Positions 9,239-57,711 are shown, numbered from the stretch's first letter. The stretch is DNA of 64,000 bases from Candidatus Dojkabacteria bacterium (GCA_030583785.1 CP129475.1:543559-607558), one strand, 5' to 3'. The notes: a model not told the origin generated them from the sequence alone. Numbers and translations are program-made.

Positions 9239-9836
9239 AAAACAAGTTTACTTGAATACAATGTTAAATAAAAGTGTAGCTAGGTAAACGCACTTTCACC
9301 ATGCTATAATCTATTATAAATTTATTAAGTCTATCTTAATAACAGAATGAATCCAGAAACGACTCCCACAATAAAGGATAATGATAGATTTATCTTGATA
9401 TCAACTCTAAGATTAATTGGCATAACTTATGCAGGTAGCCTTGTTGCGATAACCATTTTCCCTCCAATAATTACTGGAATCAGATTTGTTGCAGCAATTG
9501 CAGAGCTTCAACAAGGAAACCCACTTGCCGCTGCTGAATTTCCCAACTTAATTGGTGGCTACCAGCCATAATAGTTATAGGCTTATAATCAACTAAGACA
9601 CCTACACTCTTAGGCTAATTTCAAGCACGAATTATAAAGCGCGCATAATTTTCGCAACAAACAGTCAACACCTTCGTAGTTATTTATTAAGAACATACGA
9701 TAGTTATCCACACAAATGCCTAATTACGATATTATTAAATATTTCTTAATAGATGATATATATACTTAAGATATATTTACTATAGGTTTACTTTTTATGC
9801 GATTCGTTATATAATTGCAGTGTAGATATAACAGCT

Positions 9837-16128: not shown

Positions 16129-16683
16129 ATGAAAGCAATCTCAATTATTACAGAGCCTAAACTTACATTCACCATTCTACTTATATACATATCGATCTTC
16201 AGAAACAATAATTTGATTGAATTCTTTGTATATCTGCTAGTTATAATTATTTCACTATTATTGGTAAAGAGAACGAAAGATAAAAACCTTGTTGAAGAAA
16301 CTTATGAATATAAAACTAAACCTGAGAAATCTCTTCGAATAAGCACATATTTATTGACAATCATAATGTCGATTCTTATGTTTTTATTCGCGGTAATAAA
16401 CAGCCGACAATCAGACCTATCATTTTCATTAATTCTGATTGTGTTAACAATTATTATGCTTGTCTTTGCCATACTAGGCACAAAACTAAGCGCACATTTA
16501 ATGTATACAGCGCTCATTATTCTCTATTTCTTTGAAGGTGTGACTAGTTTCATCATAATGTTGTTAGTTTTGCCTTTCGTTGCATTCTCACGAGTAAAGT
16601 TAAAGAAGCATAGTATTAAGCAAATTTTTATGACAGCAATATTAATAGTAATAGTTTCGATAATCAGGGCATTAATAAAATGA
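16129..16683 (+). CDS. polytopic small membrane protein (hypothetical)
   Basis: 184 aa with 5-6 hydrophobic helices. Sits in the very AT-rich island, translationally coupled to the flanking genes. Confidence 0.4.
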   Translation: MKAISIITEPKLTFTILLIYISIFRNNNLIEFFVYLLVIIISLLLVKRTKDKNLVEETYEYKTKPEKSLRISTYLLTIIMSILMFLFAVINSRQSDLSFSLILIVLTIIMLVFAILGTKLSAHLMYTALIILYFFEGVTSFIIMLLVLPFVAFSRVKLKKHSIKQIFMTAILIVIVSIIRALIK

Positions 16684-18671
16684 ATCAAAAATACACAGAT
16701 AACAATCTCCAGACAGATATTGATCGACTATTTGTAGCTCAAGATATCATTAAGGAGTTATCAGCAAAAAATTCATTTGAAGAAGTTGCGGTTAGTGCTC
16801 TAACTTTAATCGAGAAAAGAATGGGTTACTCTGCCGCATCGATATCTATGGTTAATAATGAAAAAGACACGATTCAATTAAAATATGTTTCAGATACATA
16901 TCTTTCGAAGATCCTTAAAAGCCTTGTATTAAACGAAAGGGTTATGGGTCAATATAGTATGAAAAAAGGGATAAAGACATTAACAATGCGAGCAGCACTT
17001 GAAGGTGAAGTAAAGATTGATAACGATATAACAAAATTCACAGTACCACCATTAACAAGAACAATTGCTCAAGCAATTCAGTTATTTACTAGGACAAAAT
17101 GTATGGTAGCTGTACCAATAAGATCGAAAGCTAGGGTAATTGCTGTACTAAACTTTACTGTTCCTAAAGACAAAACTGAAATTGGGGTAAACGAACAGAA
17201 GACATTAAAACTTTTTGTTGACCAGATAGGTCTAATTATAGATAACATTATCAACAACGAAGAGATAAAGAGCTTCAACAAACAACTTGAGGAAAAGGTC
17301 GCAATCGCAACAAAAGACCTCGAAAAAAGAAATACGAACCTTGAAACCTTATACAACTTGACTAGTAATATATCTCAAACACTCAATCCCGATCAAGTAC
17401 TGCAAACTTCTGTGAACACGATCCCCATCGATGAGGAACTTATAGGTGTTACCGTTTCAACATATGACCAAATCACAAAGAAGATCTCCATAAAAGCAAC
17501 AACCCAGAGTTTACTTGCAGAAAAGGCACTTGAAATAATCGGAAATTTCTCAAAGTATGAACTCAATTTATCGAACCCATTACATAGAAAGAATCTCCTA
17601 GTAAGAGCTTTGAAAGAAGGAACACCAAAGGAAACAAAGGATTTGTATGATTTTGTTAGACCAATCCTTAACAAATCAATGTCTGAAGGTTTAAACAGAT
17701 TATTAAAAATTGAGAACATACTTATTTACCCATTGTTAGCCCGTGGTGAACCTATTGGTGCAATCGTCTTCTATCTTAAAAAAGTCGGGGAGACAAGTAT
17801 TACAACCGAAAAACAACAGCTTTATTCTACTTATGCGTCACAGCTAAGTATCGCACTTGAGAACGCACTCCTATTTAGCAAATCACAAGAAATTACTACC
17901 AATTTGCAAGAAGCCAGGCAAAGAGAAAGGGATATGGTTGATGTCATGGGGCATGAACTAAGAACACCTATTTCTATTGTCAGAAATGCTCTATTAACAC
18001 TTGAGAAAGATTACAAAGCAGATAAGAAGATTGAAGATCAAGAAAAACTTGGTAGGTATTTAGACATGGCAATTGAATCAACAAAAAGAGAGATTCGTTT
18101 GATAGAAACCCTTCTCTCAGCTACGAAAGTTGAAGGAAACAAGGTTCAACTTGACCTAACGAAAGTTGATTTGACAGATGTGATCAACGACTCAATAGAA
18201 GCGATGAAAGGATACTTTGATGACAAGCCCAGAGTCAAACTTATCTACAATGCACCCAAAAGGCCAGTCTATATATATTCCGATCGAGTGAGGATACAAG
18301 AAATTACAGACAATTTATTAAGTAATGCTATTAAATATACTGCAGAAGGTTATGTAAAGATTGATTTACAAAAAAATAGCGATGAGGCTTGGATCACTAT
18401 TAAGGACACAGGCATCGGAATCGATGAACCTGACTTAAAAAACCTGGGCCATAAGTTCTTTAGAGCCAAAGGTATGCTAACTGAAGATCCAAATATTGTG
18501 CAGCCTAGTGGGACAGGACTTGGTCTTTTTGTATCGTTTAATCTACTGAAGCTTCTAAACGGCAGAAAACAAATTAAGAGTAATCGAGGAAAAGGATCAA
18601 CATTCAGCTTTTCGCAACCAATCTATAGAAATCAAAGGAATTCAAGAATTGAAGGGTCGATGGTAGGCTGA
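16680..18671 (+). CDS. soluble GAF-domain sensor histidine kinase, paralog of 11110..13431
   Basis: The HisKA/HATPase_c region is nearly collinear with HK1 (RERDMVDVMGHELRTPISIVRNAL ; LIETLLSATKVEGN ; NAIKYT ; GTGLGLFV ; GKGSTFSF). No TM segment. The N-terminus has GAF-like repeats. Confidence 0.75.
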   Translation: MNQKYTDNNLQTDIDRLFVAQDIIKELSAKNSFEEVAVSALTLIEKRMGYSAASISMVNNEKDTIQLKYVSDTYLSKILKSLVLNERVMGQYSMKKGIKTLTMRAALEGEVKIDNDITKFTVPPLTRTIAQAIQLFTRTKCMVAVPIRSKARVIAVLNFTVPKDKTEIGVNEQKTLKLFVDQIGLIIDNIINNEEIKSFNKQLEEKVAIATKDLEKRNTNLETLYNLTSNISQTLNPDQVLQTSVNTIPIDEELIGVTVSTYDQITKKISIKATTQSLLAEKALEIIGNFSKYELNLSNPLHRKNLLVRALKEGTPKETKDLYDFVRPILNKSMSEGLNRLLKIENILIYPLLARGEPIGAIVFYLKKVGETSITTEKQQLYSTYASQLSIALENALLFSKSQEITTNLQEARQRERDMVDVMGHELRTPISIVRNALLTLEKDYKADKKIEDQEKLGRYLDMAIESTKREIRLIETLLSATKVEGNKVQLDLTKVDLTDVINDSIEAMKGYFDDKPRVKLIYNAPKRPVYIYSDRVRIQEITDNLLSNAIKYTAEGYVKIDLQKNSDEAWITIKDTGIGIDEPDLKNLGHKFFRAKGMLTEDPNIVQPSGTGLGLFVSFNLLKLLNGRKQIKSNRGKGSTFSFSQPIYRNQRNSRIEGSMVG

Positions 18672-18792: not shown

Positions 18793-19650
18793 TCAAATCA
18801 GTGTCCACCAGAAGTCCCCTGTATTAACAGGATGAGCAGTGCATTTATACCTTCTAGTTGTTCCGTTAGGTAGGTTGAACTTATATTCTCTTCCTTCCTC
18901 AACACATGGACTATTAGGGATTCCATAATCTTCGGGAAAACCATTTACTTCAGACGGTGCACAACTCAAGCCACTCTGACATGCTACATTACTGACAGTA
19001 CAAGTTTCCGGAGGCAGTCCACCATCGGTTCCATAACAACCGTTTGAAGAACCGGCCGCAGAACCTATATCACAACAACCGCCTACCCCATCACTTACAG
19101 ATGATATCAGTGAGGATGTTGGAGTTGCTGTTGCACCCGTAGGTGCTACTGAATCATCGCCCTGATTCTGTGATCCGGTTTCTGAACACACCGTACTGAA
19201 AAAAAATGTAAACCCAGGATCTCTGAGGTTGGCATAACATTCTGCCTCGTTGGATATGAGCCCTCGCATGATAGTTGCCACCACTGGCTGCGAAAGAAAA
19301 TACAAAAGCACACCTATCACCCATTGGCCTCCTCTTTTTTTTGCCTGCTCTGCTTTTTGTTCATCACCGGCACTTGTAAGGTAGATAAACCCGATAACAA
19401 CAAGCAGAAGCATAAAAACTATTCCTCCAAAAGCCCAGGCAGCATAAATAAACCTGATAACAACATATTGAAGCTCTCTGAGTTGAGGAGGTTCGCAATT
19501 TGGATCGTTAAGATCACATGGTGGTGTTAATCCTTGGGCATTGACTGAATCAAAAGAACCTACTAGCAAAGGTAACAAGAGCATAGTCAAAACGACCAGC
19601 AATACACCAAGTCTTTTTAATAACAAGATTAATGAATCGATTCTTTTCAT
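18793..19650 (-). CDS. VirB2/TrbC-like pilin-fold protein with C-terminal Cys/Gly/Ser-rich ectodomain (paralog 1)
   Basis: Signal peptide (MKRIDSLILLLKRLGVLLVVLTMLLLPLLVG). Two Cys in the short pre-core segment (PPCDLNDPNCEPP). Hydrophobic helix, charged loop (TSAGDEQKAEQAKKRG), second helix. A ~160-aa C-terminal domain with ~12 Cys follows. Start moved to the internal Met (19650); the ORF track gives 19722. Confidence 0.5.
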   Translation of the reverse strand: MKRIDSLILLLKRLGVLLVVLTMLLLPLLVGSFDSVNAQGLTPPCDLNDPNCEPPQLRELQYVVIRFIYAAWAFGGIVFMLLLVVIGFIYLTSAGDEQKAEQAKKRGGQWVIGVLLYFLSQPVVATIMRGLISNEAECYANLRDPGFTFFFSTVCSETGSQNQGDDSVAPTGATATPTSSLISSVSDGVGGCCDIGSAAGSSNGCYGTDGGLPPETCTVSNVACQSGLSCAPSEVNGFPEDYGIPNSPCVEEGREYKFNLPNGTTRRYKCTAHPVNTGDFWWTLI

Positions 19651-19735
19651 GTTTATAGTATAGGTCAGCTGTAAACAAAGTTCCAGAAAAAAAAGATCCG
19701 CACTAGGCGGATCTTTAAGCACATTTTAGTAATAA

Positions 19736-20278
19736 TTACTTACAATTCACACTAATTTGGCCTTGCCCTTTTGCAAATGCTTCGTACTCTGCCTCACAAC
19801 CAGTACAAACTGAATCAGCTGGATCTGCTAAACAAGCTTTACAGCCTACGCTGTTTGGTGCCGATAAACAGGTCTGGAATAAGTTTGGATCTGGTCTTGA
19901 AGCGCCAAAAAAGACAAAGACTAATACTATACCGACTATTGCCAAAAGCATTGCTGCAATACCCATGAAGATGGCAGTTATTGATTTTTGCGCTTCTTCG
20001 ATTTTACCGGAATCACCTTGAGACTGAATATACTTGATAGCTGCCATAATTGCATATACAACTGCAATTAGAACAACAATACCAAGAGCAATAACTAAAG
20101 CAAGTTGCACTCGACTGGTAACAAACTGTGCAGAACCGCTACCGTCTGGACCAGTAAGATTGAATATATCAGCTATTTGCGCAGGCAATAAACTTTGTGC
20201 AGCAACAACATTGACAAGACCTACTACAACAAAGAATGCCATTAATGCAAAAGCAACTGGAAAGAATCGTTTGGACAT
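19736..20278 (-). CDS. VirB2/TrbC-like pilin-fold protein with C-terminal Cys-rich tail (paralog 2)
   Basis: Signal peptide. Helix (LALVIALGIVVLIAVVYAIMAAI), loop (QSQGDSGKIEEAQKS), helix (AIFMGIAAMLLAIVGIVLVFVFF). Tail has 7 Cys (CLSAPNSVGCKACLADPADSVCTGCEAEY). Confidence 0.55.
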   Translation of the reverse strand: MSKRFFPVAFALMAFFVVVGLVNVVAAQSLLPAQIADIFNLTGPDGSGSAQFVTSRVQLALVIALGIVVLIAVVYAIMAAIKYIQSQGDSGKIEEAQKSITAIFMGIAAMLLAIVGIVLVFVFFGASRPDPNLFQTCLSAPNSVGCKACLADPADSVCTGCEAEYEAFAKGQGQISVNCK

Positions 20279-20362: not shown

Positions 20363-20914
20363 TTAAAACCAGCGCGAACTGATATTTTCACAAGATTGTT
20401 CCCATCTTCTGTACTCATTAAGAGTAATATCGTTGACTACAAGACTCTGCCATTCTTGACCATCGCGTACCTTGCAACAGCCTATGGCTACATTCTGTCT
20501 GAAATCATCTTCGCTATAGCCTTTTAATGTTTCGTCTGTTTCAAGATATTGAAACATGAATTGTCCGCTTGTTCCACCACACTGTGCAAGATTTGTATGC
20601 CAAGAATAAATATCCCCTATTCCTGTGAAAGCTCCAACCACAGATAAAACGACTAGAAAACCGAGGAACATAGCAATTCCAATCCAGATATTGGTAATTG
20701 TCTTTTTGCCTGCTTCGATCCCATCCGGTTCTGCCGCACTGGTAATAATTCGGATGCCTGCATAAATCGACAATGCAACCCAGACCACCACCATAACAGT
20801 GAAGACCATACTAATTCCAAAAGCGATTACCGATAGAACTCCTCCCGTAGCGATTCCTCCAACATTGGGAATTAGTAATTGAATGCCGCCGATTGTTGTT
20901 TGTAGATTGAACAT
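20363..20914 (-). CDS. VirB2/TrbC-like pilin-fold protein with C-terminal Cys-containing domain (paralog 3)
   Basis: Helix - SAAEPDGIEAGKKT loop - helix core. A ~80-aa C-terminal domain has 4 Cys, including a CC pair. Confidence 0.5.
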   Translation of the reverse strand: MFNLQTTIGGIQLLIPNVGGIATGGVLSVIAFGISMVFTVMVVVWVALSIYAGIRIITSAAEPDGIEAGKKTITNIWIGIAMFLGFLVVLSVVGAFTGIGDIYSWHTNLAQCGGTSGQFMFQYLETDETLKGYSEDDFRQNVAIGCCKVRDGQEWQSLVVNDITLNEYRRWEQSCENISSRWF

Positions 20915-20927
20915 GCTAATTATAATT

Positions 20928-21665
20928 TTACGGAATTAACTGCCATACTCCAGAAATGGAAGTTGGTGTCTCACGATTACAAATATAATTTTCAATTTCT
21001 CCATTAGTTAGAGCCCGATATGCTTTCTTCCCTATAGGTGAACATGCTTGGTTTGTTACCGTACCAATTAGCCTTTCTGGAGGGACCAAATCAAAATCAA
21101 AGAGGTTTTCGGCAAGACCAAGCAACATAGCCAACAACTGAATAATGATTATGCCAAATACAGATATAACTACTCCGATAAGAGCGTTCTTAAAAATTTT
21201 AACAGAGAGTTCGACTTTGTCTGCATTGTCTGCGGCCGTTGTTCGAACAATCATTCCGTACACTGCCATAAGTACAGTAACAACAGCAATAACACCCATT
21301 ACTGCAGAAAGTAATAACCGAGTTATTCGCGGGATAGCCATCTGAGGAGGACCGAAATCTATTCCAGAGAAATTGACACTGTTAACAACTTCGTCTGTGG
21401 CTTGATCCTCTCTTTCTTTCGGTTCTGAAGGATCTCCTTTTTTGCAGCTACGACCCTCTGCAATAATCCAATACTGACAAACATCATTGCAATCAGCTGC
21501 AGGATCGGTGAATTTAAGCACAGAACAAGCCGGATCAACAACTAGGTCAGTACGATTTGGTTCACTAACGGGCCCGGAATCCGGATCATCTTGGTCAATA
21601 ATGGCGCAACCAGAAAGTACAGTTAAAGCAACTGCAAATATAAATAGATTGAGTAATTTCTTCAT
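20928..21665 (-). CDS. lipoprotein with N-terminal Cys-rich domain, central VirB2/TrbC-like core and C-terminal Cys pair (paralog 4)
   Basis: Lipobox LTVLSGC. N-terminal domain with 5 Cys. Core IAVVTVLMAVYGMIV - RTTAADNADKVELSVK - ALIGVVISVFGIIIIQLLAMLLG. Confidence 0.5.
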   Translation of the reverse strand: MKKLLNLFIFAVALTVLSGCAIIDQDDPDSGPVSEPNRTDLVVDPACSVLKFTDPAADCNDVCQYWIIAEGRSCKKGDPSEPKEREDQATDEVVNSVNFSGIDFGPPQMAIPRITRLLLSAVMGVIAVVTVLMAVYGMIVRTTAADNADKVELSVKIFKNALIGVVISVFGIIIIQLLAMLLGLAENLFDFDLVPPERLIGTVTNQACSPIGKKAYRALTNGEIENYICNRETPTSISGVWQLIP

Positions 21666-21668
21666 TTG

Positions 21669-22022
21669 TTAATTACCAATTAACTGGATTCCGAAAATTG
21701 CCCCAATTAAACCAACTACTACAGGTGCAACAATGATAATAACAAAACCAATAACAGCATATGTCAATATTTTGTTTGCCTTTGCCTCTTGGTCTGCGTT
21801 ACCGGCAGCCGTGAGCTTGGTAAAACCCCCCAGAATGATCATAGCCAGCAAAGCCAAAGTTGCAGCAGGAAGGATAAACGCACTTAGCGAAGAAACAATG
21901 CTACTAATGTTTCCGAAAGCAGGATTGACAGGGTTTTGAATTGGATTCTGCGCTAAAACTTTTGTCGCTGCCACGAAAAAGATAACTATTGAAAGTACGA
22001 ATGTGCTTAATTGCTTTTTCAT
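21669..22022 (-). CDS. minimal VirB2/TrbC-like pilin (paralog 5, no Cys domain)
   Basis: Signal peptide MKKQLSTFVLSIVIFFVAATKVLA. Helix, AAGNADQEAKANK loop, helix (AVIGFVIIIVAPVVVGLIGAIFG). Size and topology are those of a canonical T-pilin/TrbC subunit. Start moved to the internal Met (22022); the ORF track gives 22043. Confidence 0.6.
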   Translation of the reverse strand: MKKQLSTFVLSIVIFFVAATKVLAQNPIQNPVNPAFGNISSIVSSLSAFILPAATLALLAMIILGGFTKLTAAGNADQEAKANKILTYAVIGFVIIIVAPVVVGLIGAIFGIQLIGN

Positions 22023-22064
22023 ATTCTTAGAATAGCAGAGCAAATAAATTGATTCAAATTACTC

Positions 22065-23207
22065 TTATCCTCCCAGGAAGTTTTCAGGAAGGATGCCAAG
22101 TACATTTATTCCCAAGAATCTTAGTATCACGACTGCGCCAACCAAAACCACCAAAGCAATTAGCGCAGAAGTAATCAGTTCCTTTGCCTCTCTTATTTGT
22201 TCGGGATTATCTGTCTGCATCATTATTGCAGCCTGCAGAAATCTGATTATCATGACACCACCGATTATTCCTATTCCTATTTGAAACAGCCTGGTAATGA
22301 TTCCATCTCTTGAATAATCAACGCAACCGATTGCAGTCCAAATTGTATTTGGACTGCTTGTGCATTCAATACAAAGGTTTTTTTCAGCATCGTTTCCTAC
22401 TATTGTTTCGCAACCGGTTGCTCCCGGAGCACCTTGTCGCCTTTCATACTCTTCTTCTGTAATCCAACTACCACTGTAACATCGTTTTTCTTTTAGTGTG
22501 TATCCTGGCGGATAGCAATTTTGTTCACAGCCAGACCTTGTTGTTGGAACTAGTGAGGACTTATCTGGATCTTCATCTACTGCCACACAGTTGTTGGGCT
22601 GGCATGAATAGCTTTGTTCAGGCGCCCGACCATGAGGATCTGTCAACAACAATAGATTATATAGACCTTCTCCGGGAGACCGTCCCTGGTCGTTAGCATT
22701 CTTGCAAGAGATCGGTCCTGGATTACCAGGTACTTGTGCCGGTGTGTATAGATTATTCACAACATTTACGACTCGATTATAGTTTCCTTCAAAGTCATTC
22801 TGATATCCCTGCGGGCAACAGACTATATACTTGGTAAAGCCCACCTGCTTCCAGATTGGATCCATATTTACGGGACAACAATAGAATTCGTTCCAATCAC
22901 CAAAATTTCCGTCGGTTCCTTTAACTCGTGCGATTCTCTCTTCGGCCAAACAAACCTCTACCCTATCGCCAGATCTTCTGCCTTGTACCGGATTTCCAAA
23001 AATACCTTCAGCAGGCTCTGTTAAACAAACTTTTTCTATTGTAGGTTGCTGCCTTCCATTGGTCATGTTCCTTTCGGTTAAACCATCTGGACAGACTGGT
23101 GTTGGAACACAGACGGCGCTTCCCACAGCAGAGACATTTTCGGATACTAAAGAAGCAAAGGTTACGAAAGAAGCAATGATTATGAATAAACGGACAATGT
23201 GAATCAC
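22065..23207 (-). CDS. secreted protein with large N-terminal Cys-rich ectodomain (~24 Cys) fused to C-terminal VirB2/TrbC-like core (paralog 6)
   Basis: Signal peptide. A ~280-aa domain dense in Cys/Pro/Gly. C-terminal core IGIGIIGGVMIIRFLQAAIMM - QTDNPEQIREAKE loop - LITSALIALVVLVGAVVILRFLG. Confidence 0.5.
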   Translation of the reverse strand: MIHIVRLFIIIASFVTFASLVSENVSAVGSAVCVPTPVCPDGLTERNMTNGRQQPTIEKVCLTEPAEGIFGNPVQGRRSGDRVEVCLAEERIARVKGTDGNFGDWNEFYCCPVNMDPIWKQVGFTKYIVCCPQGYQNDFEGNYNRVVNVVNNLYTPAQVPGNPGPISCKNANDQGRSPGEGLYNLLLLTDPHGRAPEQSYSCQPNNCVAVDEDPDKSSLVPTTRSGCEQNCYPPGYTLKEKRCYSGSWITEEEYERRQGAPGATGCETIVGNDAEKNLCIECTSSPNTIWTAIGCVDYSRDGIITRLFQIGIGIIGGVMIIRFLQAAIMMQTDNPEQIREAKELITSALIALVVLVGAVVILRFLGINVLGILPENFLGG

Positions 23208-25783
23208 TTTGGCACATTAGCTAAACTAGAAATATGAATCTCACCGCCTGCAGATAGTGTTCCGCCTACGATCTGCTTGGCAATATGGTTTTCTATATCA
23301 TCTTGAATAACTCTTCTTAATTCTCTGGCACCATATAAAGGATTGTAACCTTTTTTGGCAAGCTCGGCCAACAGGGTTGGAGCATAAGAAAAGGTGATAC
23401 CTTTTTCTTCCAGCTTCTCTTCAAGCTCTTTGAGCATGAGTGCTGCAATTTGTTGTACCTCGATGGGAACAAGTGGTTTGAACAGAACAACTTTATCGAA
23501 ACGATTAATAAATTCGATGCGTAGATAGTTTCTCAGCCTAGGCATTATTTCTGTTCGAAGCTTTTGGTAGTCGTAACCTTTTGCAGTGTAATCTGCAATC
23601 TCTTTTGATCCAAGATTTGATGTAGCAATAATAATTGTATTCGAAAAATCGACCTTTCTGCCCGCGCCATCTGTTAGTGATCCTTCGTCAAGAACCTGTA
23701 AGAACAGATCAAGAACTTTTGCATTAGCTTTCTCGATTTCATCAAGAAGAAGTAACGAATAAGGCTTTGTCCTAACGGCTTCTGTTAAATAGCCACCCTG
23801 AAATGTTCCTTTCACTTCTTTGCCAAGGAGTCTATCTAAATTTTCTGCCTCCTGATACTCAGACATGTCTAGCCTCAGCATTAGTTTTTCATCGCCGTAA
23901 TAGACTTTTGTTAATGCTTTAGCAAGTTCTGTTTTACCAACTCCAGTAGGCCCGAAGAACAGAAACGAGGCAATTGGCCTTTTGCCACTCATAAGCCCCG
24001 CTCTTGACCTGCGTAAAGCGTCTGCAACAGCAATAACAGCTTCTTCTTGTCCAACTATCCTTTTGTTGATTTCTTCTTCAAGGTTTACAAGTAACTTGGA
24101 CTCCTCTGTACTAATTGCACCAACTTTTACGCCTACTTTCGCCGACACGACTTCTTCGATCAACTGTTCATCTGCAAAATTAATACCTCGGTTTTGTGCT
24201 TCGACCATTACTTCTTCGAGCAAGTCTATTCCTTTGTCGGGCATGACTTTTTCAAAAGAGAACGAACCGGATAACTTGATAAGTCTTACAAGCGCATCAA
24301 AACTGACTTTAACCTTAAATTTATCTTCAAGCTTCGGCAGAACATCCATTAAGATTTGTTGACTAACAGATTCGGATGGGACTTTAAGCTCGACCTGTTT
24401 GAACTTTGCAGATAACGACCGTTCCGGCTTTATTCGGCGCTCGTATCCTGAAGTTGTTGCGACAGCAACTGTTCTTATTTTGTAACGATCAAGAGCATTT
24501 ATAATTAGGCCAACTATTTCTTCGGTAACATCTCTTCTACCGCTTAAAATTTGCTCAAAGTCATCTAACACTAAAATTATGTTCTTGGCTGCTGCTGATT
24601 CTTCAAAAACGCTTTGAACTCTTTCTTTGAACTTTTCAATATTCTGCGACAGAGCAAAGGCTCTACTAAAATCAAAACCGACAAGGCGCATATCTTTTAA
24701 AGATTTAGGGACATCTTCAACCACCATACGGACTGCGAGACTCTTGACTAGGGTCGTTCTTCCAACACCTGGGTTTCCGGTCAAAATTACTGCGCTATCT
24801 TCGCCTTCAACCAGATACGAAATCATTTGCTCCAGCTCTTCTTCTCGGGCAAGAGAATAACTAAAATCACCTTGTGCAACTTCGGCAGTATAGTCTCTTT
24901 GGAATTGAACAAGGATCGGTGAAAACCTTGAGGTAAAAGCTCTATTTACAGTAGAAACAGGTTTTAATGCTCTCTTTTGTTTAAACAATTTCTTGTAGCG
25001 AGCAATATCGCTTTTGTTCTGGATCCACAGACCTAAAGAAGCCACTTCTTCTGGAAGAACATTTACACTTTTCAATTTCTGCTTCAAAGGTTCTTTAAGT
25101 AAGAAGAGGAAAAAGGCGAGTTCATCGACACTATTTGTATGCAGTTCGTAAGCAAGTTCAAAAGACTCTTTTAGAACTTTCACCAACCATTCATCGACAT
25201 GGGTATTATTCATTCTGGAATGCGTGCTGCTAATTTTTTGTAACATTTCCTGATTCAAACCGAGCCTTTTTGCTGCGGCCATAACCTTTGGAAAAGAATA
25301 AAGCTCGTGCATTAATAGTGGTAAAAAGTTGTGGTCATCCATGCGCAACAAGTCATCTATAACATTGAGCAAATCATGATCAATAAATGAGCTCAATTCT
25401 ATCTGCTTGGGAAGGTCACCCTTGTTCAAAGATGCACGCAAATCGCTTAGCTGTTTGATACGCAACGAGTCGATAAATCTTGTCCTATTTCTGCGTAAAA
25501 ATAAAGCATATAAAAAAGGCAGAACAGAAAAGACTGCCAGTACATCTTTAATTCTGTCGGGATTAAGGATTTCAAATAGCAGAATCTTTCCTTCTTGCAA
25601 ATCTGTGAAGAAAAGAATAAATAAGGTGATCGCCGAAATGACAGTCAGAAAAAGTCCTAACGACCTATCAAATAATTCGAACTCTCTTCGTAGCCCATAT
25701 TCCTTTAATAAGTAGTCCCAATCAAGGAATAGAGGGATGCTTTTAAACAGTCCGATATTTTCTTTACCTTTACGCAACTGCAT
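23204..25783 (-). CDS. membrane-anchored Clp/Hsp100-family double AAA+ ATPase (ClpC/ClpA-like, no M-domain, no obvious ClpP-docking loop)
   Basis: Two N-terminal TM helices. Two Clp_N-like repeats (LPLLMHELYSFPKVMAAAKRLGLNQEML ; FFLFLLKEPLKQKLKSVNVL). D1 Walker A GNPGVGRTTL and Walker B ILVLDDFE. D2 Walker A GPTGVGKTELAK, Walker B LLLLDEIEKA, sensor IIIATSNLG. Its last 4 nt overlap the pilin-like paralog 6. Confidence 0.7.
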   Translation of the reverse strand: MQLRKGKENIGLFKSIPLFLDWDYLLKEYGLRREFELFDRSLGLFLTVISAITLFILFFTDLQEGKILLFEILNPDRIKDVLAVFSVLPFLYALFLRRNRTRFIDSLRIKQLSDLRASLNKGDLPKQIELSSFIDHDLLNVIDDLLRMDDHNFLPLLMHELYSFPKVMAAAKRLGLNQEMLQKISSTHSRMNNTHVDEWLVKVLKESFELAYELHTNSVDELAFFLFLLKEPLKQKLKSVNVLPEEVASLGLWIQNKSDIARYKKLFKQKRALKPVSTVNRAFTSRFSPILVQFQRDYTAEVAQGDFSYSLAREEELEQMISYLVEGEDSAVILTGNPGVGRTTLVKSLAVRMVVEDVPKSLKDMRLVGFDFSRAFALSQNIEKFKERVQSVFEESAAAKNIILVLDDFEQILSGRRDVTEEIVGLIINALDRYKIRTVAVATTSGYERRIKPERSLSAKFKQVELKVPSESVSQQILMDVLPKLEDKFKVKVSFDALVRLIKLSGSFSFEKVMPDKGIDLLEEVMVEAQNRGINFADEQLIEEVVSAKVGVKVGAISTEESKLLVNLEEEINKRIVGQEEAVIAVADALRRSRAGLMSGKRPIASFLFFGPTGVGKTELAKALTKVYYGDEKLMLRLDMSEYQEAENLDRLLGKEVKGTFQGGYLTEAVRTKPYSLLLLDEIEKANAKVLDLFLQVLDEGSLTDGAGRKVDFSNTIIIATSNLGSKEIADYTAKGYDYQKLRTEIMPRLRNYLRIEFINRFDKVVLFKPLVPIEVQQIAALMLKELEEKLEEKGITFSYAPTLLAELAKKGYNPLYGARELRRVIQDDIENHIAKQIVGGTLSAGGEIHISSLANVPK

Positions 25784-26108
25784 AGTTTAAATAGCGGATG
25801 AGCTGGATAAATGGCACTAAAGGTAAGACAAGATAAAATACAAAAATGGCCAACAACGGCAAAGTGAAGATAGTAAGAATAATGGAACCAGTTACAACCC
25901 AAACGAGTCGTATAGGAATGCTAATAAATACCCCGATCATTGAGTAGTCTTGATACAGGGGTACCAATATATTGGTTGCCATCGGTAAAATATTTAGGTA
26001 GCCAAGGGCAAAACTCCATATTGCAGATAGTTCCTGCAAGACTTGCCTAGACTGAACAAAATACCACCAGATCCAAAAATTAAGCAGATATTTTTTTATC
26101 AGCACCAC
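25770..26108 (-). CDS. small polytopic membrane protein (hypothetical)
   Basis: 112 aa with 3 hydrophobic helices. Overlaps the start of the Clp-like gene, so may lead the operon. Coding status is uncertain. Confidence 0.3.
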   Translation of the reverse strand: MVLIKKYLLNFWIWWYFVQSRQVLQELSAIWSFALGYLNILPMATNILVPLYQDYSMIGVFISIPIRLVWVVTGSIILTIFTLPLLAIFVFYLVLPLVPFIQLIRYLNYAVA

Positions 26109-26217: not shown

Positions 26218-27882
26218 ATGAAAAATGCGCTTAAAAGGTTATCAAGGTACGCCGCAGAGATCTATTTCTTGTTTGTGGCATTAGTCATTATGCTCCCCCT
26301 TTTAAGAGAGGGATACATATTGCTACTGGACATGACCTTTACCCCTAAAATGAACTACAGTTTTCAAAGTCCTTTCGGTTTATATAACGAGGCCGCTAGA
26401 GACGCAGTCCTTAACATTGCATCGCAAATAATAGGTTCGCAGTTACTCGAAAAGCTATTATTGCTCACCTTGTTATTCATGACCGGCTACTTCATGTTTC
26501 AACTTCTTAAACATTTAAAAGTGAATGCAGATGCAGCCCTTGTTGGCGCAACTCTATATTTATGGAATCCCTTTATTTATAGTCGATTACTTGCCGGTCA
26601 CTGGGCTTTTATATTTGGATATGCATTGCTACCAATCTTCCTGATTTTTTTTAACAAATACTTAAGTAGGAAAAGATTCTCGAATACTTATCTTATTTCT
26701 GCTGCGCTCCTTTGGTTTGCGGCCAGCCTAATAAGTATTCATCATCTATTCATATATTTTATTCCATCTGTTGCCATTACCTTTGCCCACATGCTGCAAA
26801 CCAAAAACTGGGAAGGTAAAATCGCAAGATTGGTTTCAATTTGTGCATTTGTGACTCTTTTCTCTTTTAGTTGGTTCTTACCCACAATCCTTTCTGGAGA
26901 AGTTTCTAGAATCGATAATAATAATCTGCAATTCTTTGCCTCCACTCCTGACCTAAAATATGGACTCTCTACAAACTTACTTGGAATGTATGGGTTTTGG
27001 GCAGAGAATACAATTGGCGAAACAATAAAACCCTATCTGTCGATCTGGCCAGTTATTTCCATATCTTTAGTGATTATCTCGGCTGCTTCTTTACTGCTGG
27101 CAAAACAATGCTGTAAAAAAAATCAGTATTTATTCATCGTTGCTCTGGCAGGAACTGGTTTTATTGGATTTGTTCTTGCTCACGGATCATATGGAATAAT
27201 GCAACCTTTTTGGGACTTCTTCTTTGTAAAGATTCCCTTGTTGCAAATGTTTAGAGACTCACAAAAGTTTCTTAGTTTATATGTCTTAGCATTGAGTATT
27301 CTTCTTCCTTTCAGTATAGGCGCCATCGCTGATTCAGTTAAGATATATAAATTGAGTAAAGAGTCGAAGATAAGAGGATTGAGCATTTTATTGGTTTTGT
27401 TAATAATTCTGGTCAATCCTTTTATGGGATTTGCGGCTGCTGGTCAGATGAAAATATCTGATTATCCAGACAGTTGGTATCAACTTGAGGATAAAGTTAT
27501 TAGTGAACAGAGACCCTCTAAGATTCTGATGCTTCCATGGTTAGCCTATGCCAAGTTCGGGTTCAGTGATAAACAAATTGCCAACCCTGGATCAAAATTC
27601 TTTAGTGCCTATGTTATCGCAGAAAGGATTCCTGCCCTTCTAAAGCAACCTACAAACTGCGAGATCGAATTTAAAGAATATTATAGAGGCGAGATTATTA
27701 GTCTCTGCTTAAACAGCAATAGTGCAAACGCTGACTGGATTAACCAGATTAAAAGCAATGGAATTGACTATGTTGTCATCAATAAAATAAAAGGCTTTGA
27801 AGTAAATGATTTTTACAACGACAAAGAACACTTTCAGAAATTATTTACAGACGACTATACAGAAATATACGAGGTGCTTTAG
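26218..27882 (+). CDS. polytopic membrane protein, GT-C-like glycosyltransferase candidate (paralog of N-domain of 32595..36314)
   Basis: About 10+ TM helices. Pattern shared with the larger neighbour: AALVGATLYLWNPFIYSRLLAGHWAFIFGYALLPIF versus AALIAGFVYTLNTYSIVLFAEAGHINILVAYGFVPLAI. The architecture resembles YfhO/arabinosyltransferase-type GT-C enzymes. Confidence 0.4.
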   Translation: MKNALKRLSRYAAEIYFLFVALVIMLPLLREGYILLLDMTFTPKMNYSFQSPFGLYNEAARDAVLNIASQIIGSQLLEKLLLLTLLFMTGYFMFQLLKHLKVNADAALVGATLYLWNPFIYSRLLAGHWAFIFGYALLPIFLIFFNKYLSRKRFSNTYLISAALLWFAASLISIHHLFIYFIPSVAITFAHMLQTKNWEGKIARLVSICAFVTLFSFSWFLPTILSGEVSRIDNNNLQFFASTPDLKYGLSTNLLGMYGFWAENTIGETIKPYLSIWPVISISLVIISAASLLLAKQCCKKNQYLFIVALAGTGFIGFVLAHGSYGIMQPFWDFFFVKIPLLQMFRDSQKFLSLYVLALSILLPFSIGAIADSVKIYKLSKESKIRGLSILLVLLIILVNPFMGFAAAGQMKISDYPDSWYQLEDKVISEQRPSKILMLPWLAYAKFGFSDKQIANPGSKFFSAYVIAERIPALLKQPTNCEIEFKEYYRGEIISLCLNSNSANADWINQIKSNGIDYVVINKIKGFEVNDFYNDKEHFQKLFTDDYTEIYEVL

Positions 27883-28247: not shown

Positions 28248-29729
28248 ATGATATATGAACCTAGACTAGATACTGCTCATAGGCAGGAGCTGAAAGGAAC
28301 AGGTAACAGGAAATTAGTATTATTGTTACTGGCTGGCACTTTGGTTGTGTCTGCAAGCGGATGCTTTCAAAACGCGGGTCAACCACTCGAGATAACACCT
28401 AGTAACCCAGTTGTTAGAACTTTTACACCTACCCCCACTCCAACAATGGAGGTATTAGCGACTGCAACTCTGCCGCCAACCGCAACTTTACCACCAACTG
28501 AAACAGTGGGAGCAGGTGACCCACCAGAAGACGACCCAGAAGATGACAATAATGACCCTCTACCAACAGCAGGCCCCGATGGAGTAATTCGTATCACAGC
28601 AACACCAAATCCAACAGAGGCTCAGACATTAACTCCAACAACAAGGCCTACTGAAACCGAAACTGCAACAGCACAACCTACTTTGGATAGCGATGCAGTT
28701 CTGTTTGATGCAGATGGAAAAACACTAAATTGGCAGCCGGCTGGATTTATACCAGCATTATCAAACCTTGAAGGTAACCAATATGGATTTCTTAACCCTG
28801 ATGGTACAACTACTATCAGAGAAGATGGGGCAATAATCCTCGAATATTTCTCTAGACTCTTTGCAGGAGAGAATATAAGCCAAAGTGCGATAGACATCTG
28901 GTCTCTGGCAGAGACAGATATTAGTAATATCCCAGCGGATTTCTTGGCAGATCAGCATAACAAGATTCGCGAATTAGTAGCTGAGCAGGTTGGATATTCT
29001 TCCAGAGTGGGAGAAAGCAGAATCGACGAAGATCAATTAGCTGCAACTATGAACTACCTGCACGAAGTTTTTGCCGCAATGGCTTCAACTGGATCGCTTC
29101 CCCAATCCGGAAACAATGCAACAGTCTTTTATGTGCCTGTTCAAGAACTTGTGACTTCATATAACGGCGACATGCTTGATTTATCTGAATATCAAATATT
29201 TCAGACAGGTAGGCAAGAACCACAGAATCCGGCAGAAGCGATGTCGGCTATTAACCAAATTGCAAGAAACCAAAACAGTCGCCAAATGCAAATTGGAGGA
29301 GCTGACGGGATAATAAGACGACTCTCGGCACCCTTCAGAAGATTCTTTACTAACAGTAACAGACCTACGAGTCTTTCTGCAGAAAACTACAACGGTCATG
29401 TATTTGTTGTTAGAATGACTGTTGGTGGAAATTCTTACCGCATTAGCCTTGGTGCAGACTCCATTGTGAATTTGTACACATCCAGCGAAGCAACCAGTAC
29501 ACCTTTTATGCTGGCGACGGGAACAGCAACAATGCCAGCGCCGACATCTACAGATAGCTGGAACGAAACAAGACCAACCGAAACACAACCAACAAGAGAG
29601 GCTACAGCAATTGTGCCACCAACTGACGAACCTCCACCACCAACTGATCTGCCTATTCCACCAACGGATGTTGTGCCACCGACTGACATGCCACCTCAGC
29701 CGACTTTAACAAGTGTACCGAATAATTAA
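28248..29729 (+). CDS. lipoprotein with Pro/Thr-rich repeat linkers (putative glycosylated surface protein)
   Basis: Signal plus lipobox-like SASGC. N-terminal TPTPTPT and TATLPPTATLPPTET repeats. C-terminal PPTDEPPPPTDLPIPPTDVVPPTDMPPQPT repeats. The globular middle part is of unknown function. Confidence 0.5.
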   Translation: MIYEPRLDTAHRQELKGTGNRKLVLLLLAGTLVVSASGCFQNAGQPLEITPSNPVVRTFTPTPTPTMEVLATATLPPTATLPPTETVGAGDPPEDDPEDDNNDPLPTAGPDGVIRITATPNPTEAQTLTPTTRPTETETATAQPTLDSDAVLFDADGKTLNWQPAGFIPALSNLEGNQYGFLNPDGTTTIREDGAIILEYFSRLFAGENISQSAIDIWSLAETDISNIPADFLADQHNKIRELVAEQVGYSSRVGESRIDEDQLAATMNYLHEVFAAMASTGSLPQSGNNATVFYVPVQELVTSYNGDMLDLSEYQIFQTGRQEPQNPAEAMSAINQIARNQNSRQMQIGGADGIIRRLSAPFRRFFTNSNRPTSLSAENYNGHVFVVRMTVGGNSYRISLGADSIVNLYTSSEATSTPFMLATGTATMPAPTSTDSWNETRPTETQPTREATAIVPPTDEPPPPTDLPIPPTDVVPPTDMPPQPTLTSVPNN

Positions 29730-29747
29730 TTTTTTATTTAAATTCGT

Positions 29748-32546
29748 ATGAAAATAAAAAAGACAGTAACAGCAATAGTTATAAGCTGTTTGCTTCTCTC
29801 TTTGTTTCCGATTCAAAAAACAGAAGCCACAGTCGGAGAATGCGTAATTGGGACTGTATGCGCATACAAAGATGTATATGATTTCCAAACCTCTACTTAT
29901 CACCCCGAAATTGCAAACGGCGTTGAACTAGAACAAAACATCTTCAGAATTGGAATCTGGAATACATCAGGAAGTCCAATCCACAATGTCAGGGTTCATG
30001 ATGTTCTTCCTTCTGGTCTAACTTATATACCCACAACCGTTGTCGTTGCTGGTTATACAGGGACATATAATGATCAGGATCTTTTTAACGGAACTGGAAT
30101 AAATTTTGGAACAGTTGCCAATTCCGGATCAATACAACTTAATTTTCTGGTAAGAGTCGACGACTTGCCTGAAGGCAATTACACTTTAACTAACAACGCA
30201 ACAATAACCTGGGACGGAGGATCAATTTCAGATACAGCTTCTGTGTATGTCGAAGCACAAGATCCACCTGTAAACGAAGGAATATTATTGGTGAACGAAA
30301 TTAACCATGCACCAAGAGCCGATTACAGTGCAGGATCTTCATATGCTTTAAAGAATCGAACTGCAGTAAACGCTGATGATCAATGGATTGAAGTCTTTAT
30401 ACGACAGAACGGTCTTGACCTTAGCGATTCACGCTGGGAAATGACAATTACCAACAACGGAGGCAGTACTGACACAAGAAACCTATTAACCATTGGATCA
30501 AGCTATGAATATTTCGGATCAGGATCTGTAACAAATACAGTTAATGGTGCCTATCTTCTTCTTGCTAATCCTTATCTAGAAATCTCAAACGATGCAATAA
30601 TCAGCATTAAATACAACGGAATCACAGTCGATGATATGACCGTTAGTGGTTCAAACACAGGTCTTTTAGATGAAACCATAGGAAGGAACGAAAGCAGCAC
30701 AGACACAAACAGTAACTCAGATTTCAGTAGGAATCACGGAACTCCAGGTAGAGCTAATGAACAAAGAAGCCAAGCACGCTATGAGGCAGAAATCTATATT
30801 GACTCCCAAGCTGGCAACGAAAGAGGTATCGATGTCATTGATGCTGGCGCCAGTAGAGGCATAGCCAAAAAGCTTGAACCGGCATTTGATCTAGCTGGAA
30901 ATATAATGAATGTATCTTCATCTGCCCAGAATGCAGCAGGATACTACAAAGCAATACTTAGACTGAAAGCAGAAAATGCCGATCTTAATAGTTCTGATCA
31001 TTTTGCAGAGTTTAACATCAACTACGATAACGGCACAGGTGGATACCATACAATTGGCTATGCTATCCGCGGTAGAGATATCGTATCTAATGGCGTATAC
31101 CAAAACTTTGAGATCGAATTCCGAAAAGGCCCGTCAACAACAAATTCAGTCTTTGAGCTTAGCTTTATACCATCAGCAGGTACAACAGTAATTGTCGACT
31201 ATATCGAAGTTGCTCCATTTTCTCCCAACAATTCTCTACCCCGAGTATACGAGGCCGAAAATATGCACTTCAAAACAGGCTATAGAGCCGACGATGCTGG
31301 TACAGCAGTTGCTTTTGGACCTAAATCTGAAGCTAATGCAGACTCCTTCATGAGCTTCGGTCCATTTACCGCAAGTCACATTACAGGAATCGGTTCAGGA
31401 CAATTCCTAGCAACATATAGAATGCGCTTTGCCAATATTACAGGATCAGCATCCGATTTGGCAGTCCGCATTGATGTTCATAACAAAGCAACAGGAATCT
31501 ATCGAGAGAGATTCTTAAGAGTGGCAGACTTATCTGGAAGTTATAAAGACTTCGAGATTTCATTCCCGGCAACCGGTCAAGGTTCAATCGAATTTCGAGT
31601 TATTAACCTTGGGGCAGCTGACATCTACTTTGACAAAGTAACAGTAACCTCAACAAGTTCTGCCAGCATCAGTTATGAGGCAGAGAGTGATTTCGAGTAT
31701 CCAATAGCTCCTGTTGCAACACTAATCAATGCAGGGGCTTCTGGAACACAGGAGGTAAAGGCAGATACAGCAATCAACGCTGAAGGATTCTTAATCAGAG
31801 GTCCTCATGCTTTTGACCAAACAGAAACCAGCAAATACTATGAAGCAAGTTTCAGATTAAGAACAGACTCACCTGCAAGTGGAAACAGCCTACCCGCCGC
31901 ATTACTGTTTATCAGAAACATTGATACAGGACAAATTCTTACAAGTCAGATAGTACATGCCAACACGCTGGTTGAAGATTACAGATCATTCAAGCTGGTC
32001 TTCAACTCTCCAATCGAGGGCAGACTATCTTATGAGGTCTACTTTTTGAGGACAACAAATGTGATTGCCGATAATGTGGTCGTAACAGAACTGCCAGGCA
32101 ATCCAAATCCAAGAGTAAGTCAGGCTGAACAGCTTAGAAGATGGAATAATAACGGCTCAATCGTTGAAGACAGCAAGGCTTCAAACAGCATCGGTCACAC
32201 AAGTGGCTATGCGGTGCAAGCTCTAAGCGGAATTAATAACAATCAAGTTGTCTTGTTTAGTGATTCCCAAGAAGTATTCCCTTCGGGAAACTATGAAGCC
32301 AAATTCCATGTTCGCGGAACTCTCTCCGGAGGATCATCACAAGATATTGCCTATCTTGAGGTATGGAACGAGTTCGGACACCTTAACTATTACCCTCTAA
32401 AGGAATCAGAATTAGACACCGAATATGGTGTATTCACAGTTCCTTTCACAAAAGTCTCTAACGGAAGAATCTACTTTAAAGTGTTCTACCGCGGAGGTCT
32501 TTCTAACAGCATGTTAATCGATAAAATCGAAGTGAACATGTTATAA
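29748..32546 (+). CDS. large secreted surface protein: signal peptide, DUF11-type conserved repeat domain, lamin-tail (LTD)-like domain, four ~140-aa internal repeats
   Basis: Signal MKIKKTVTAIVISCLLLSLFPIQKTEA. DUF11-like segment (NVRVHDVLPSGLTYIP...YTLTNNATITWDGG). LTD-like segment (ILLVNEINHAPRAD...DQWIEVF). Repeat units open with RYEAEIYID / VYEAENMHF / SYEAESDFE / SQAEQLRRW. Confidence 0.55.
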   Translation: MKIKKTVTAIVISCLLLSLFPIQKTEATVGECVIGTVCAYKDVYDFQTSTYHPEIANGVELEQNIFRIGIWNTSGSPIHNVRVHDVLPSGLTYIPTTVVVAGYTGTYNDQDLFNGTGINFGTVANSGSIQLNFLVRVDDLPEGNYTLTNNATITWDGGSISDTASVYVEAQDPPVNEGILLVNEINHAPRADYSAGSSYALKNRTAVNADDQWIEVFIRQNGLDLSDSRWEMTITNNGGSTDTRNLLTIGSSYEYFGSGSVTNTVNGAYLLLANPYLEISNDAIISIKYNGITVDDMTVSGSNTGLLDETIGRNESSTDTNSNSDFSRNHGTPGRANEQRSQARYEAEIYIDSQAGNERGIDVIDAGASRGIAKKLEPAFDLAGNIMNVSSSAQNAAGYYKAILRLKAENADLNSSDHFAEFNINYDNGTGGYHTIGYAIRGRDIVSNGVYQNFEIEFRKGPSTTNSVFELSFIPSAGTTVIVDYIEVAPFSPNNSLPRVYEAENMHFKTGYRADDAGTAVAFGPKSEANADSFMSFGPFTASHITGIGSGQFLATYRMRFANITGSASDLAVRIDVHNKATGIYRERFLRVADLSGSYKDFEISFPATGQGSIEFRVINLGAADIYFDKVTVTSTSSASISYEAESDFEYPIAPVATLINAGASGTQEVKADTAINAEGFLIRGPHAFDQTETSKYYEASFRLRTDSPASGNSLPAALLFIRNIDTGQILTSQIVHANTLVEDYRSFKLVFNSPIEGRLSYEVYFLRTTNVIADNVVVTELPGNPNPRVSQAEQLRRWNNNGSIVEDSKASNSIGHTSGYAVQALSGINNNQVVLFSDSQEVFPSGNYEAKFHVRGTLSGGSSQDIAYLEVWNEFGHLNYYPLKESELDTEYGVFTVPFTKVSNGRIYFKVFYRGGLSNSMLIDKIEVNML

Positions 32547-32594
32547 TTATAGGATATTATCCCCTCTATCGCTCTGCGGTAGAGGGGTCCTATA

Positions 32595-36314: not shown

Positions 36315-36317
36315 ACA

Positions 36318-40261: not shown

Positions 40262-40284
40262 TGCTCCAGCGCGACTACAATTTA

Positions 40285-41086: not shown

Positions 41087-42736
<1,650 letters not shown>

Positions 42737-57709: not shown

Positions 57710-57711
57710 CA

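Follow-up and report, generated by a model that had tools for sequence, protein, structure and literature searches.

Can a Clp/Hsp100 unfoldase, one of a group of textbook soluble machines, be built into a bacterial membrane and put to work on pilin-like proteins? The question is raised by a gene in a 64,000-nucleotide stretch of DNA from Candidatus Dojkabacteria bacterium (GCA_030583785.1, CP129475.1:543559-607558; hereafter the window, with coordinates counted from its first letter and features on the minus strand unless stated otherwise). The gene, at 23204..25783, encodes an 859-residue protein, called TM-Clp here for its predicted transmembrane (TM) segments, and is followed by an array of VirB2-like pilin genes. 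A sequence-only reading of the locus had described a membrane-tethered Hsp100 coupled to pilin-like genes and had suggested that it stands in for missing VirB4/VirB11-type ATPases. The analysis reported here identifies the protein as an integral-membrane member of the Clp/Hsp100 superfamily that is specific to the Candidate Phyla Radiation (CPR). The favored interpretation, which is given a probability of about 0.5 and is drawn from sequence comparison, is that it would act as a ClpP-independent membrane dislocase comparable to FtsH and Msp1, with pilins as its main clients in the Dojkabacteria-type clade.

Membership of the superfamily is evident from the open reading frame (ORF), Pfam, NCBIfam, alignment to ClpB structures, and an AlphaFold2 (AF2) model built from a 30-sequence family alignment (mean pLDDT, the model's per-residue confidence score, 85.9). 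The ORF begins with an ATG whose methionine is invariant across six aligned homologues, and its Pfam matches comprise AAA (PF00004, residues 332-448), AAA_lid_9 (PF17871), AAA_2 (PF07724, residues 602-764, E=1.6e-52), and ClpB_D2-small (PF10431, residues 775-851). The protein thus carries the two tandem AAA+ modules of a class I Clp/Hsp100, the second being of the AAA_2 type with ClpB_D2-small. The best match in the PDB, by both sequence and fold, is ClpB of T. thermophilus (1qvr, E=2.7e-113), in which the second AAA+ module (D2) aligns at equal length (536-851 on 521-837), and Foldseek comparisons with ClpC and ClpB hexamer chains give E-values down to 1e-47. The top NCBIfam models are ClpB, ClpA, ClpK, ClpV, and ClpG, with every score far under its curated cut-off (e.g., for ClpB (TIGR03346 / PRK10865), 465.7 bits versus 1232.1 and 402 versus 1417; for ClpA, 409.2 versus 993.15 for TIGR02639, with the model aligned in one stretch over 271-852; for ClpV/TssH, 397.5 versus 884.95 for TIGR03345). 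These scores place the protein in the Clp/Hsp100 superfamily, yet as the equivalog of no named member, and the alignments to ClpA- and ClpB-type proteins uphold the superfamily assignment of the sequence-only reading. A role as ClpV in a type VI secretion system (T6SS) was rejected because the TssH score is far under its cut-off and no T6SS genes occur among the window ORFs. Domains of VirB4 (AAA_10/CagE), VirB11 (T2SSE), or type IV coupling proteins (T4CPs) were absent from the best 25 of the 45-48 Pfam matches for the protein.

The feature that sets the protein apart is its N-terminus, for which a two-helix membrane hairpin with both ends in the cytoplasm (N-in/C-in) is predicted from hydropathy, the positive-inside rule, the AF2 model, and conservation in the family. 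A cytosolic segment of 41 residues (25661..25783), with a beta-hairpin predicted by AF2 at residues 7-21, precedes a first TM helix at residues 42-60 (25604..25660; 19-residue Kyte-Doolittle (KD) peak 2.44, within a long AF2 helix at 32-64) and a second at residues 78-96 (25496..25552; peak 1.95, AF2 helix at 78-96). The remainder of the protein nowhere exceeds 1.47, and canonical ClpB, examined as a control, has no comparable hydrophobic segment. Lysine and arginine account for 8 of the 41 residues before the first helix, 2 of 17 in the loop, and 6 of 15 after the second helix, a distribution that points to the N-in/C-in topology that an ATPase requires. The second helix ends in a conserved cytoplasmic boundary, YxxYLxRxR, in which R98 (one of the six basic residues just counted) is invariant and Y92 and L96 are nearly so. 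Across the family, the first helix is strongly hydrophobic in all 31 members and the second reaches a KD value of at least 1.5 in 23 of them. The topology analysis hence bears out the membrane anchor proposed by the sequence-only reading, with no sign that the segments fail to span the membrane. The cytosolic segment aligns with the CxxC..CxxC zinc-ribbon region of P0103, a protein of a sister clade considered below, and lacks the cysteines.

Behind the anchor lies a helical domain (residues ~110-272, 24968..25456) that is a divergent Clp_N fold, found by fold search and invisible to Pfam. The Pfam Clp_N model is undetected even at E<=1. A profile of the family N-terminus (312 columns) compared with all PDB sequences returned only Clp N-domains, 23 matches in register, all of them weak (best E=0.032). 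The earlier description of two Clp_N-like repeats thus holds for the fold, and the double repeat typical of class I Clp/Hsp100 proteins is present, but it has no counterpart in a Pfam match.

The two AAA+ modules differ sharply in their state of preservation, as judged by alignment to the ClpB proteins of T. thermophilus and E. coli and by column frequencies over 31 family members. The motif strings pointed out by the sequence-only reading (GNPGVGRTT and LVLDDF in the first module, D1; GPTGVGKT and LLLLDEIE in D2) are present as given, but that reading did not remark that those of D1 are non-canonical. D1 (residues ~300-535, 24179..24886) has a Walker A motif GVGRT with the substitution K342R, where lysine is retained in 28 of the 31 members, and its Walker B motif reads DD where ClpB has DE, the column of the catalytic glutamate being occupied by D in 17, N in 8, E in 5, and H in 1 member. 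The arginine fingers, RR in ClpB, are replaced by AK (A459/K460; S/A and L/M in the family columns), and the ClpB pore loop AGAKYRGEFEERLK is replaced by AFALSQNIEKFKERVQ, with no KYRG loop in the protein and no column across the 31 members that conserves a pore-loop aromatic. D1 therefore lacks the combination of Walker A lysine, Walker B glutamate, arginine fingers, and pore-loop tyrosine that marks a catalytically competent ring. The lysine-to-arginine change was considered as a possible sequencing error and rejected, since the closest relative, strain OLB20, carries the same arginine, which indicates that the change was inherited. As read from the alignments, the degeneracy of D1 is family-wide and inherited.

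D2 (residues ~560-859 including D2-small, 23207..24106) is, in contrast, canonical. Its Walker A lysine is present in 31 of 31 members, and the Walker B DE, sensor-1 asparagine, arginine finger, and sensor-2 arginine are each present in 30 of 31; D2 as a whole is 48-50% identical to that of bona fide ClpB. The pore signature GAPPGYVGY is replaced by a family pattern G-x-[FY]-[VI]-G-G (F/Y in 27 of 31, V/I in 17 of 31, then glycine), and in the window protein the loop reads G-x-F-Q-G-G, with glutamine at the hydrophobic position. The proposal of a double-AAA+ unfoldase is consequently correct as to the presence of two modules, but from its residues only D2 looks catalytically competent.

Two further absences noted by the sequence-only reading are borne out. 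The coiled-coil M-domain is missing: residues ~400-520 of ClpB have no counterpart in the alignment to ClpB structures, a block of more than 100 columns in a five-sequence alignment is filled by Haemophilus ClpB alone, and 275 residues separate the Walker A motifs of D1 and D2, versus 399 in Haemophilus ClpB. A ClpP-docking tripeptide ([ILVM]G[FLM]) between sensor-1 and the arginine finger occurs in none of the 29 evaluable members, in which the loop is fixed at 43 residues, and D2 has the length of the ClpB D2. The ORFs scanned in the 64-kb window included no clpP gene.

TM-Clp is not an isolated oddity. Word-indexed homologue searches with the N-terminal 307 residues and with the family alignment (A3) each returned a single protein, so that an exhaustive search was needed; phmmer run with the same 307 residues against 1.84 billion cluster representatives matched 53, and the full-length ones (822-868 residues) align from about residue 1. 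A metagenome scan was run with a closer alignment of six sequences (A4). In the full-length search, ~42 clusters with a coverage of 60-100% and without PF02861 reached at least 603 bits, and the next matches scored at most 448 bits, a gap which, at the level of sequence, sets TM-Clp apart as a discrete family. The closest loci come from metagenome-assembled genomes (MAGs) of candidate division WS6 / Dojkabacteria, with 66% identity to strain OLB20. Database entries for family members are labelled ClpE, ClpC, or "AAA family ATPase". In OLB20 itself (L001 8001-10588), a probable frameshift has divided the orthologue into two ORFs that overlap (8001-8327 and 8258-10588), and as NCBI annotates only the 769-residue piece ("ClpE"), the deposited protein is without its membrane anchor.

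Gene neighborhoods were compared in 29 loci and the window, to which two loci with precomputed Pfam annotation (L030 and L032) were added. In all 25 loci with at least 340 nt of upstream sequence, and in L030 and L032 as well (27/27), the gene immediately before Clp is a small membrane ORF, which usually overlaps it; the junction is mostly -4 to +23 nt. Downstream, pilin-like genes follow in every locus of the Dojkabacteria-type clade (clade A) with at least 2.6 kb of sequence (~19 loci, L012 left out), as arrays of 4-8 VirB2-like paralogues, and in most clade-A loci the Clp-to-pilin junction is typically -4 to +28 nt, even at protein identities of 31-66%. In L030 and L032, the order is GroES, GroEL, small ORF, TM-Clp, and genes of the type IV secretion system pilin family (T4SS_pilin). 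The linkage to pilin-like genes seen in the window accordingly recurs in every informative clade-A locus. N-terminal extensions of ~40 residues in five Clp ORFs (L011, L012, L015, L017, and L023) were considered as fusions and rejected, being artefacts of a first-start rule that reads through the overlapping small ORF. An AddA-like UvrD / PD-(D/E)XK helicase-nuclease gene lies between TM-Clp and the pilin array in two of the ~19 loci (L003 10698-13934 and L011 11266-14262), and a 1010-residue AddA-like helicase-nuclease ORF follows the Clp gene in L012.

In the window, the small ORF (25770..26108) is the first gene of the operon and encodes a conserved membrane protein of 112 residues, identified from its ORF and junction and by alignment. 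The 3' end of this ORF shares 14 nt with the start of the Clp gene. A seven-sequence alignment has a mean column identity of 58% with 18 invariant residues, and the protein has no relative in Pfam, NCBIfam, or the PDB. The possibility that the small ORF and the Clp gene are one frameshifted gene was rejected, since every locus has two distinct ORFs and the methionine at which Clp begins does not vary. The gene upstream of the small ORF is divergent (starting at 26218 on the plus strand), so the transcription unit probably begins at the small ORF. This divergent neighbor (26218-27882) encodes a 554-residue multi-TM protein with no Pfam match; its NCBIfam match is NF053599, "MmpA family trehalose lipid delivery protein" (E=8.8e-50), at 169.8 bits under a cut-off of 210 bits, and similar multi-TM proteins of ~570-600 residues occupy the same position in L001-L003.

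At its other end, the Clp gene shares a 4-nt overlap with the first pilin-like gene, as the sequence-only reading had stated, but the shared sequence is GTGA rather than ATGA, since the pilin gene starts with GTG. This first gene (22065..23207) encodes a protein of 380 residues with a signal peptide, 18 cysteines, and a C-terminal two-TM pilin domain (PF18895, E=2e-5, 25.0 bits; NF045849, E=1.3e-5). It is followed by gene 2 (21669..22043; 124 residues; PF18895, E=1.1e-9, 38.6 bits), gene 3 (20928..21665; 245 residues, 7 cysteines; sub-threshold E=4.8e-4, with the two-TM hairpin and loop motif shared), gene 4 (20363..20914; 183 residues, 4 cysteines; no Pfam match, with a TM-loop-TM core that aligns with the other five), gene 5 (19736..20278; 180 residues, 6 cysteines; a weak E=0.039 and the core alignment), and gene 6 (18793..19722; 13 cysteines; E=1.7e-5, 25.3 bits). 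Judged by the PF18895 gathering threshold of 26.6 bits, gene 2 is the sole one of the six above it (38.6 bits; three fall just short with 25.3, 25.0, and 20.6, one is weak with 14.5, and one has no match), and all six proteins have a common TM-loop-TM core with a conserved loop. Intergenic gaps among genes 1-5 are 3-84 nt, and the tight packing claimed earlier extends, by overlaps or short gaps, from the small ORF through gene 5. Between genes 5 and 6 lies a terminator-like hairpin (19692..19716; a 10-bp stem followed by a T-run). The GTG start of gene 6 at 19722 overlaps this hairpin, which makes an ATG at 19650 the likelier start. A promoter and terminator scan of the region gave site counts not above those of shuffled controls, this hairpin being the single strong one noted. 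Two GAF histidine kinase genes lie just past the pilin array on the plus strand (11110-13431 and 16680-18671), one with a 7TM N-terminal sensor; no response regulator was identified among the scanned ORFs.

The architecture suggests how such a protein could work. In Hsp100 rings, substrate enters at the face formed by the N-domain and D1 and leaves at D2, the docking site of ClpP in the ClpAP and ClpCP complexes. With an N-terminal anchor and only ~15 residues before the N-domain, the entry face would be held close to the membrane on its cytoplasmic side, an arrangement shared with FtsH and Msp1. A TM-Clp hexamer would have twelve TM helices as its tether, probably joined by the small protein, and its D2 motor could take hold of those segments of membrane proteins that reach into the cytoplasm and draw them out of the bilayer, with no attached protease and no degradation of its own. 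The part left to D1 would be structural, as a ring perhaps still able to bind nucleotide. In the window genome, the likeliest clients would be the co-transcribed two-TM pilins. Given a VirB2-like topology, the conserved loop between their helices would face the cytoplasm. Drawing them out of the membrane could contribute to assembly, recycling, or quality control. A stronger version, which would amount to a pilus system powered by an Hsp100, appears unlikely; in it, the small protein and TM-Clp together would be a motor reserved for dislocating or retracting the pilins of VirB2-like filaments in CPR bacteria, independent of VirB4, with D2 threading the cytoplasmic loop of the pilin and so feeding or withdrawing subunits. 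The earlier suggestion of a dedicated extraction motor for pilins finds agreement in the extraction geometry and in the array order that recurs in the clade, but not in the sister clade, which has the pair without the arrays.

Several observations weigh against a dislocase with pilins as its main clients. We infer the hexamer, its association with the small protein, and the orientation of the ring, and this qualifies the interpretation as a whole. The adjacency of Clp and pilin genes may in part be inherited genome architecture, given that it is embedded in a larger conserved block (YidC, a Lon-like AAA, an FtsA/PilM-like protein, an uncharacterised protein of ~650-730 residues, GroES, GroEL, the module, SbcCD, and SpoIID). 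The sister clade, formed by the next-best matches (P0096-P0107 and P0127; 860-945 residues; e.g., L033 9606-12715, L035 6628-9709, L036 6603-9769, and L038 2943-5911), has two hydrophobic segments, a degenerate D1, a Clp_N domain detectable by Pfam, and often an N-terminal CxxC..CxxC zinc ribbon ahead of the TM segments. Most of its D2 pore loops read GAPGDERGG, and this loss of the aromatic calls a threading mechanism into question for the wider group. A small membrane ORF stands directly upstream in 4 of the 5 sister-clade contexts, overlapping the Clp gene in L033, and the one of L033/L034 is homologous to the small protein of the window (E=2.8e-7). The neighbors are mraZ-rsmH and mraY (L033 and L035), PMT and GtrA (L038), or unrelated genes, and no pilin array was present in the contexts examined, the nearest approach being a single convergent PF18895 pilin gene at L036. 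The small protein and TM-Clp are thus the conserved core, the link to a pilin operon is specific to the Dojkabacteria-type clade, and the ancestral task was probably broader, concerned with membrane or envelope proteins in general.

Similar indications come from Southlakia epibionticum, in which SEML1_0700 and SEML1_0701 are the probable Saccharibacteria counterpart of the pair. SEML1_0700 is an 860-residue "AAA family ATPase" overlapping the upstream 127-residue hypothetical protein SEML1_0701 (PMC10633639 supplements); it has a Pfam pattern like that of the window protein with no Clp_N match, and it adjoins murT/gatD, far from the pilin array (PMC10633639). Orthology is not confirmed, the Pfam coordinates being shifted by about -57 residues and the C-terminus extended by ~60 residues, and the match is a lead only. 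In transposon sequencing, the counterpart was scored NE/NE/GD, i.e., non-essential at the first and second time points and a growth defect only at the last, and the pilins of the same species were essential (PMC10633639). S. epibionticum also has a canonical ClpC (SEML1_0512) and ClpP (SEML1_0493) (PMC10633639).

These observations lead to the possibility, considered tentative and somewhat less than likely, that the pair is a housekeeping, protease-less counterpart of FtsH serving general membrane or envelope proteostasis, with its place beside the pilins a matter of conserved architecture. Retention of the pair without arrays in the sister clade agrees with this, as do the GroES/GroEL genes directly upstream in many loci, the extension of macro-synteny to unrelated genes (SbcCD, SpoIID, and YidC), and the probable, unconfirmed Saccharibacteria counterpart, which is unlinked to pilins and non-essential at two of the three time points. 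However, the window operon begins at the small ORF and enters the pilin genes with a 4-nt overlap, the junction is tight in most clade-A loci despite the divergence of the proteins, and one sister-clade locus has a PF18895 pilin gene beside Clp. The residues of the pore bear on a different alternative, in which TM-Clp is a non-threading scaffold or regulator that uses ATP binding and hydrolysis by D2 as a switch, for example in gating or assembling a membrane complex with the small protein. The D1 module without catalytic and pore residues, the sister-clade members that mostly lack the D2 aromatic, and the glutamine in the window loop (F-Q-G) are compatible with such a role; the F/Y of the clade (27/31), followed by V/I (17/31) and glycine, the catalytic residues of D2 kept in 30 of 31 members, and the 48-50% identity to ClpB D2 make it improbable.

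The dislocase interpretation also has to be set against the claim of the sequence-only reading that the protein energises the VirB2-like pilus in place of VirB4/VirB11, driving pilin dislocation and polymerisation. That a cytoplasmic ATPase can act on VirB2 is well established from the dislocation of pilins by VirB4, the array has the orientation of the Clp gene and overlaps it, and the ORFs scanned in the 64-kb window included no protein of the VirB4, VirB11, or VirD4 type. That window is, however, too small for a claim of absence, as it says nothing about the remaining genome, and VirB4 is reported in most Patescibacteria classes, often distant from the pilin genes (PMC12102498). In one Saccharibacteria-labelled MAG (L005 4693-7056), groEL and the small ORF are separated by the gene for a 787-residue T4CP-like ATPase (TrwB_AAD_bind, TraG-D_C, and DUF87); no other T4SS ATPase was seen beside the module. 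This neighbor, the sister clade without arrays, and the contrast in S. epibionticum between essential pilins and a counterpart of unconfirmed orthology that is dispensable at the first two time points all argue against replacement, as does the polarity of the ring, which would draw substrates into the cytoplasm and not push them outward. The claim is consequently not upheld, and the role it describes is considered very unlikely.

The wider neighborhood of the window differs from that of many relatives. GroES/GroEL lie directly upstream of the small ORF in L030, L032, L022, and L027; in the window, ~13 kb of surface-protein, glycosyltransferase, and polysaccharide genes (28248-40941) separate groEL (41087-42718) from the operon, and OLB20, L002, and L003 likewise have other genes in that place. 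A 359-residue Lon-like AAA+ protein without a protease domain (AAA and Lon_lid) is encoded at 48524-49603, and occupies the same position in L030 and L031 (411 residues). Farther away, a phosphoketolase gene (XFP) is directly followed by acetate kinase (55349-58869, plus strand), a compact fermentative ATP-generating pair typical of CPR metabolism.

The TM-Clp family is real, conserved, currently mis-annotated, and apparently undescribed. Literature searches turned up neither a membrane-integrated bacterial Hsp100 nor a Clp-type ATPase tied to CPR pilin arrays, which is not proof of absence, and the main texts of a Patescibacteria T4SS survey, a 2025 T4SS review, and the S. epibionticum paper mention no such ATPase. 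The labels ClpC, ClpE, and "AAA family ATPase" imply coupling to ClpP or a generic function, neither of which the sequence supports. If the dislocase interpretation is correct, an integral-membrane Hsp100 with an inactive D1 and an obligatory small membrane partner would widen the known roles of Hsp100 proteins and provide a bacterial, protease-free counterpart of eukaryotic extractases such as Msp1. The epibiotic life of CPR/Patescibacteria relies on surface machinery, and the module is a candidate factor for handling their VirB2-like pilins, which are essential in the sole species tested; the probable counterpart SEML1_0700/0701 sits in a genetically tractable Saccharibacterium.

Among known systems, ClpB/Hsp104 (TIGR03346; 1qvr) shares with TM-Clp D2-small, a D2 of equal length, an N-domain of the Clp_N fold, and the absence of a ClpP-docking tripeptide; unlike these proteins, TM-Clp has a two-helix anchor, no M-domain, a replaced GAPPGYVGY signature, and a D1 without the catalytic glutamate, arginine fingers, or pore tyrosine. 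The two compact AAA+ modules recall ClpA, ClpC, and ClpE, the lack of a long M-domain recalls ClpA, and the N-terminal zinc ribbon of the sister-clade proteins is shared with ClpE, but no TM-Clp member has the IG[FL] ClpP loop, and the UVR or short M-domain is missing from a protein that is anchored and degenerate in D1. ClpV/TssH of the T6SS is likewise an Hsp100 that works without ClpP and serves one polymer, belonging to a secretion or surface machine, but it is soluble, and the window holds no T6SS genes. The likeness to VirB4 is confined to the proposed client and step, a two-TM VirB2-type pilin pulled from the membrane on the cytoplasmic side; the ATPase families are unrelated, and no AAA_10 domain was found in TM-Clp or the scanned window ORFs. 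HSP101 of the Plasmodium export translocon (PTEX) is also an Hsp100 that works at a membrane, but it has no TM helices and attaches to a pore of its own kind apart from it, the exit (D2) side turned toward the membrane, and pushes cargo out, whereas the anchor of TM-Clp is on the entry side. The working analogy proposed here is with FtsH and Msp1/ATAD1, in which an N-terminal anchor likewise holds a cytoplasmic, hexameric AAA+ ring with its entry face at the membrane. This is a presumed analogy of function and not homology, since those proteins belong to the classical AAA clade (FtsH with a protease domain) and have only the AAA+ fold in common with TM-Clp. Where they use a single ring, the motor of TM-Clp would be an Hsp100-type D2 beneath an inactive D1 ring.

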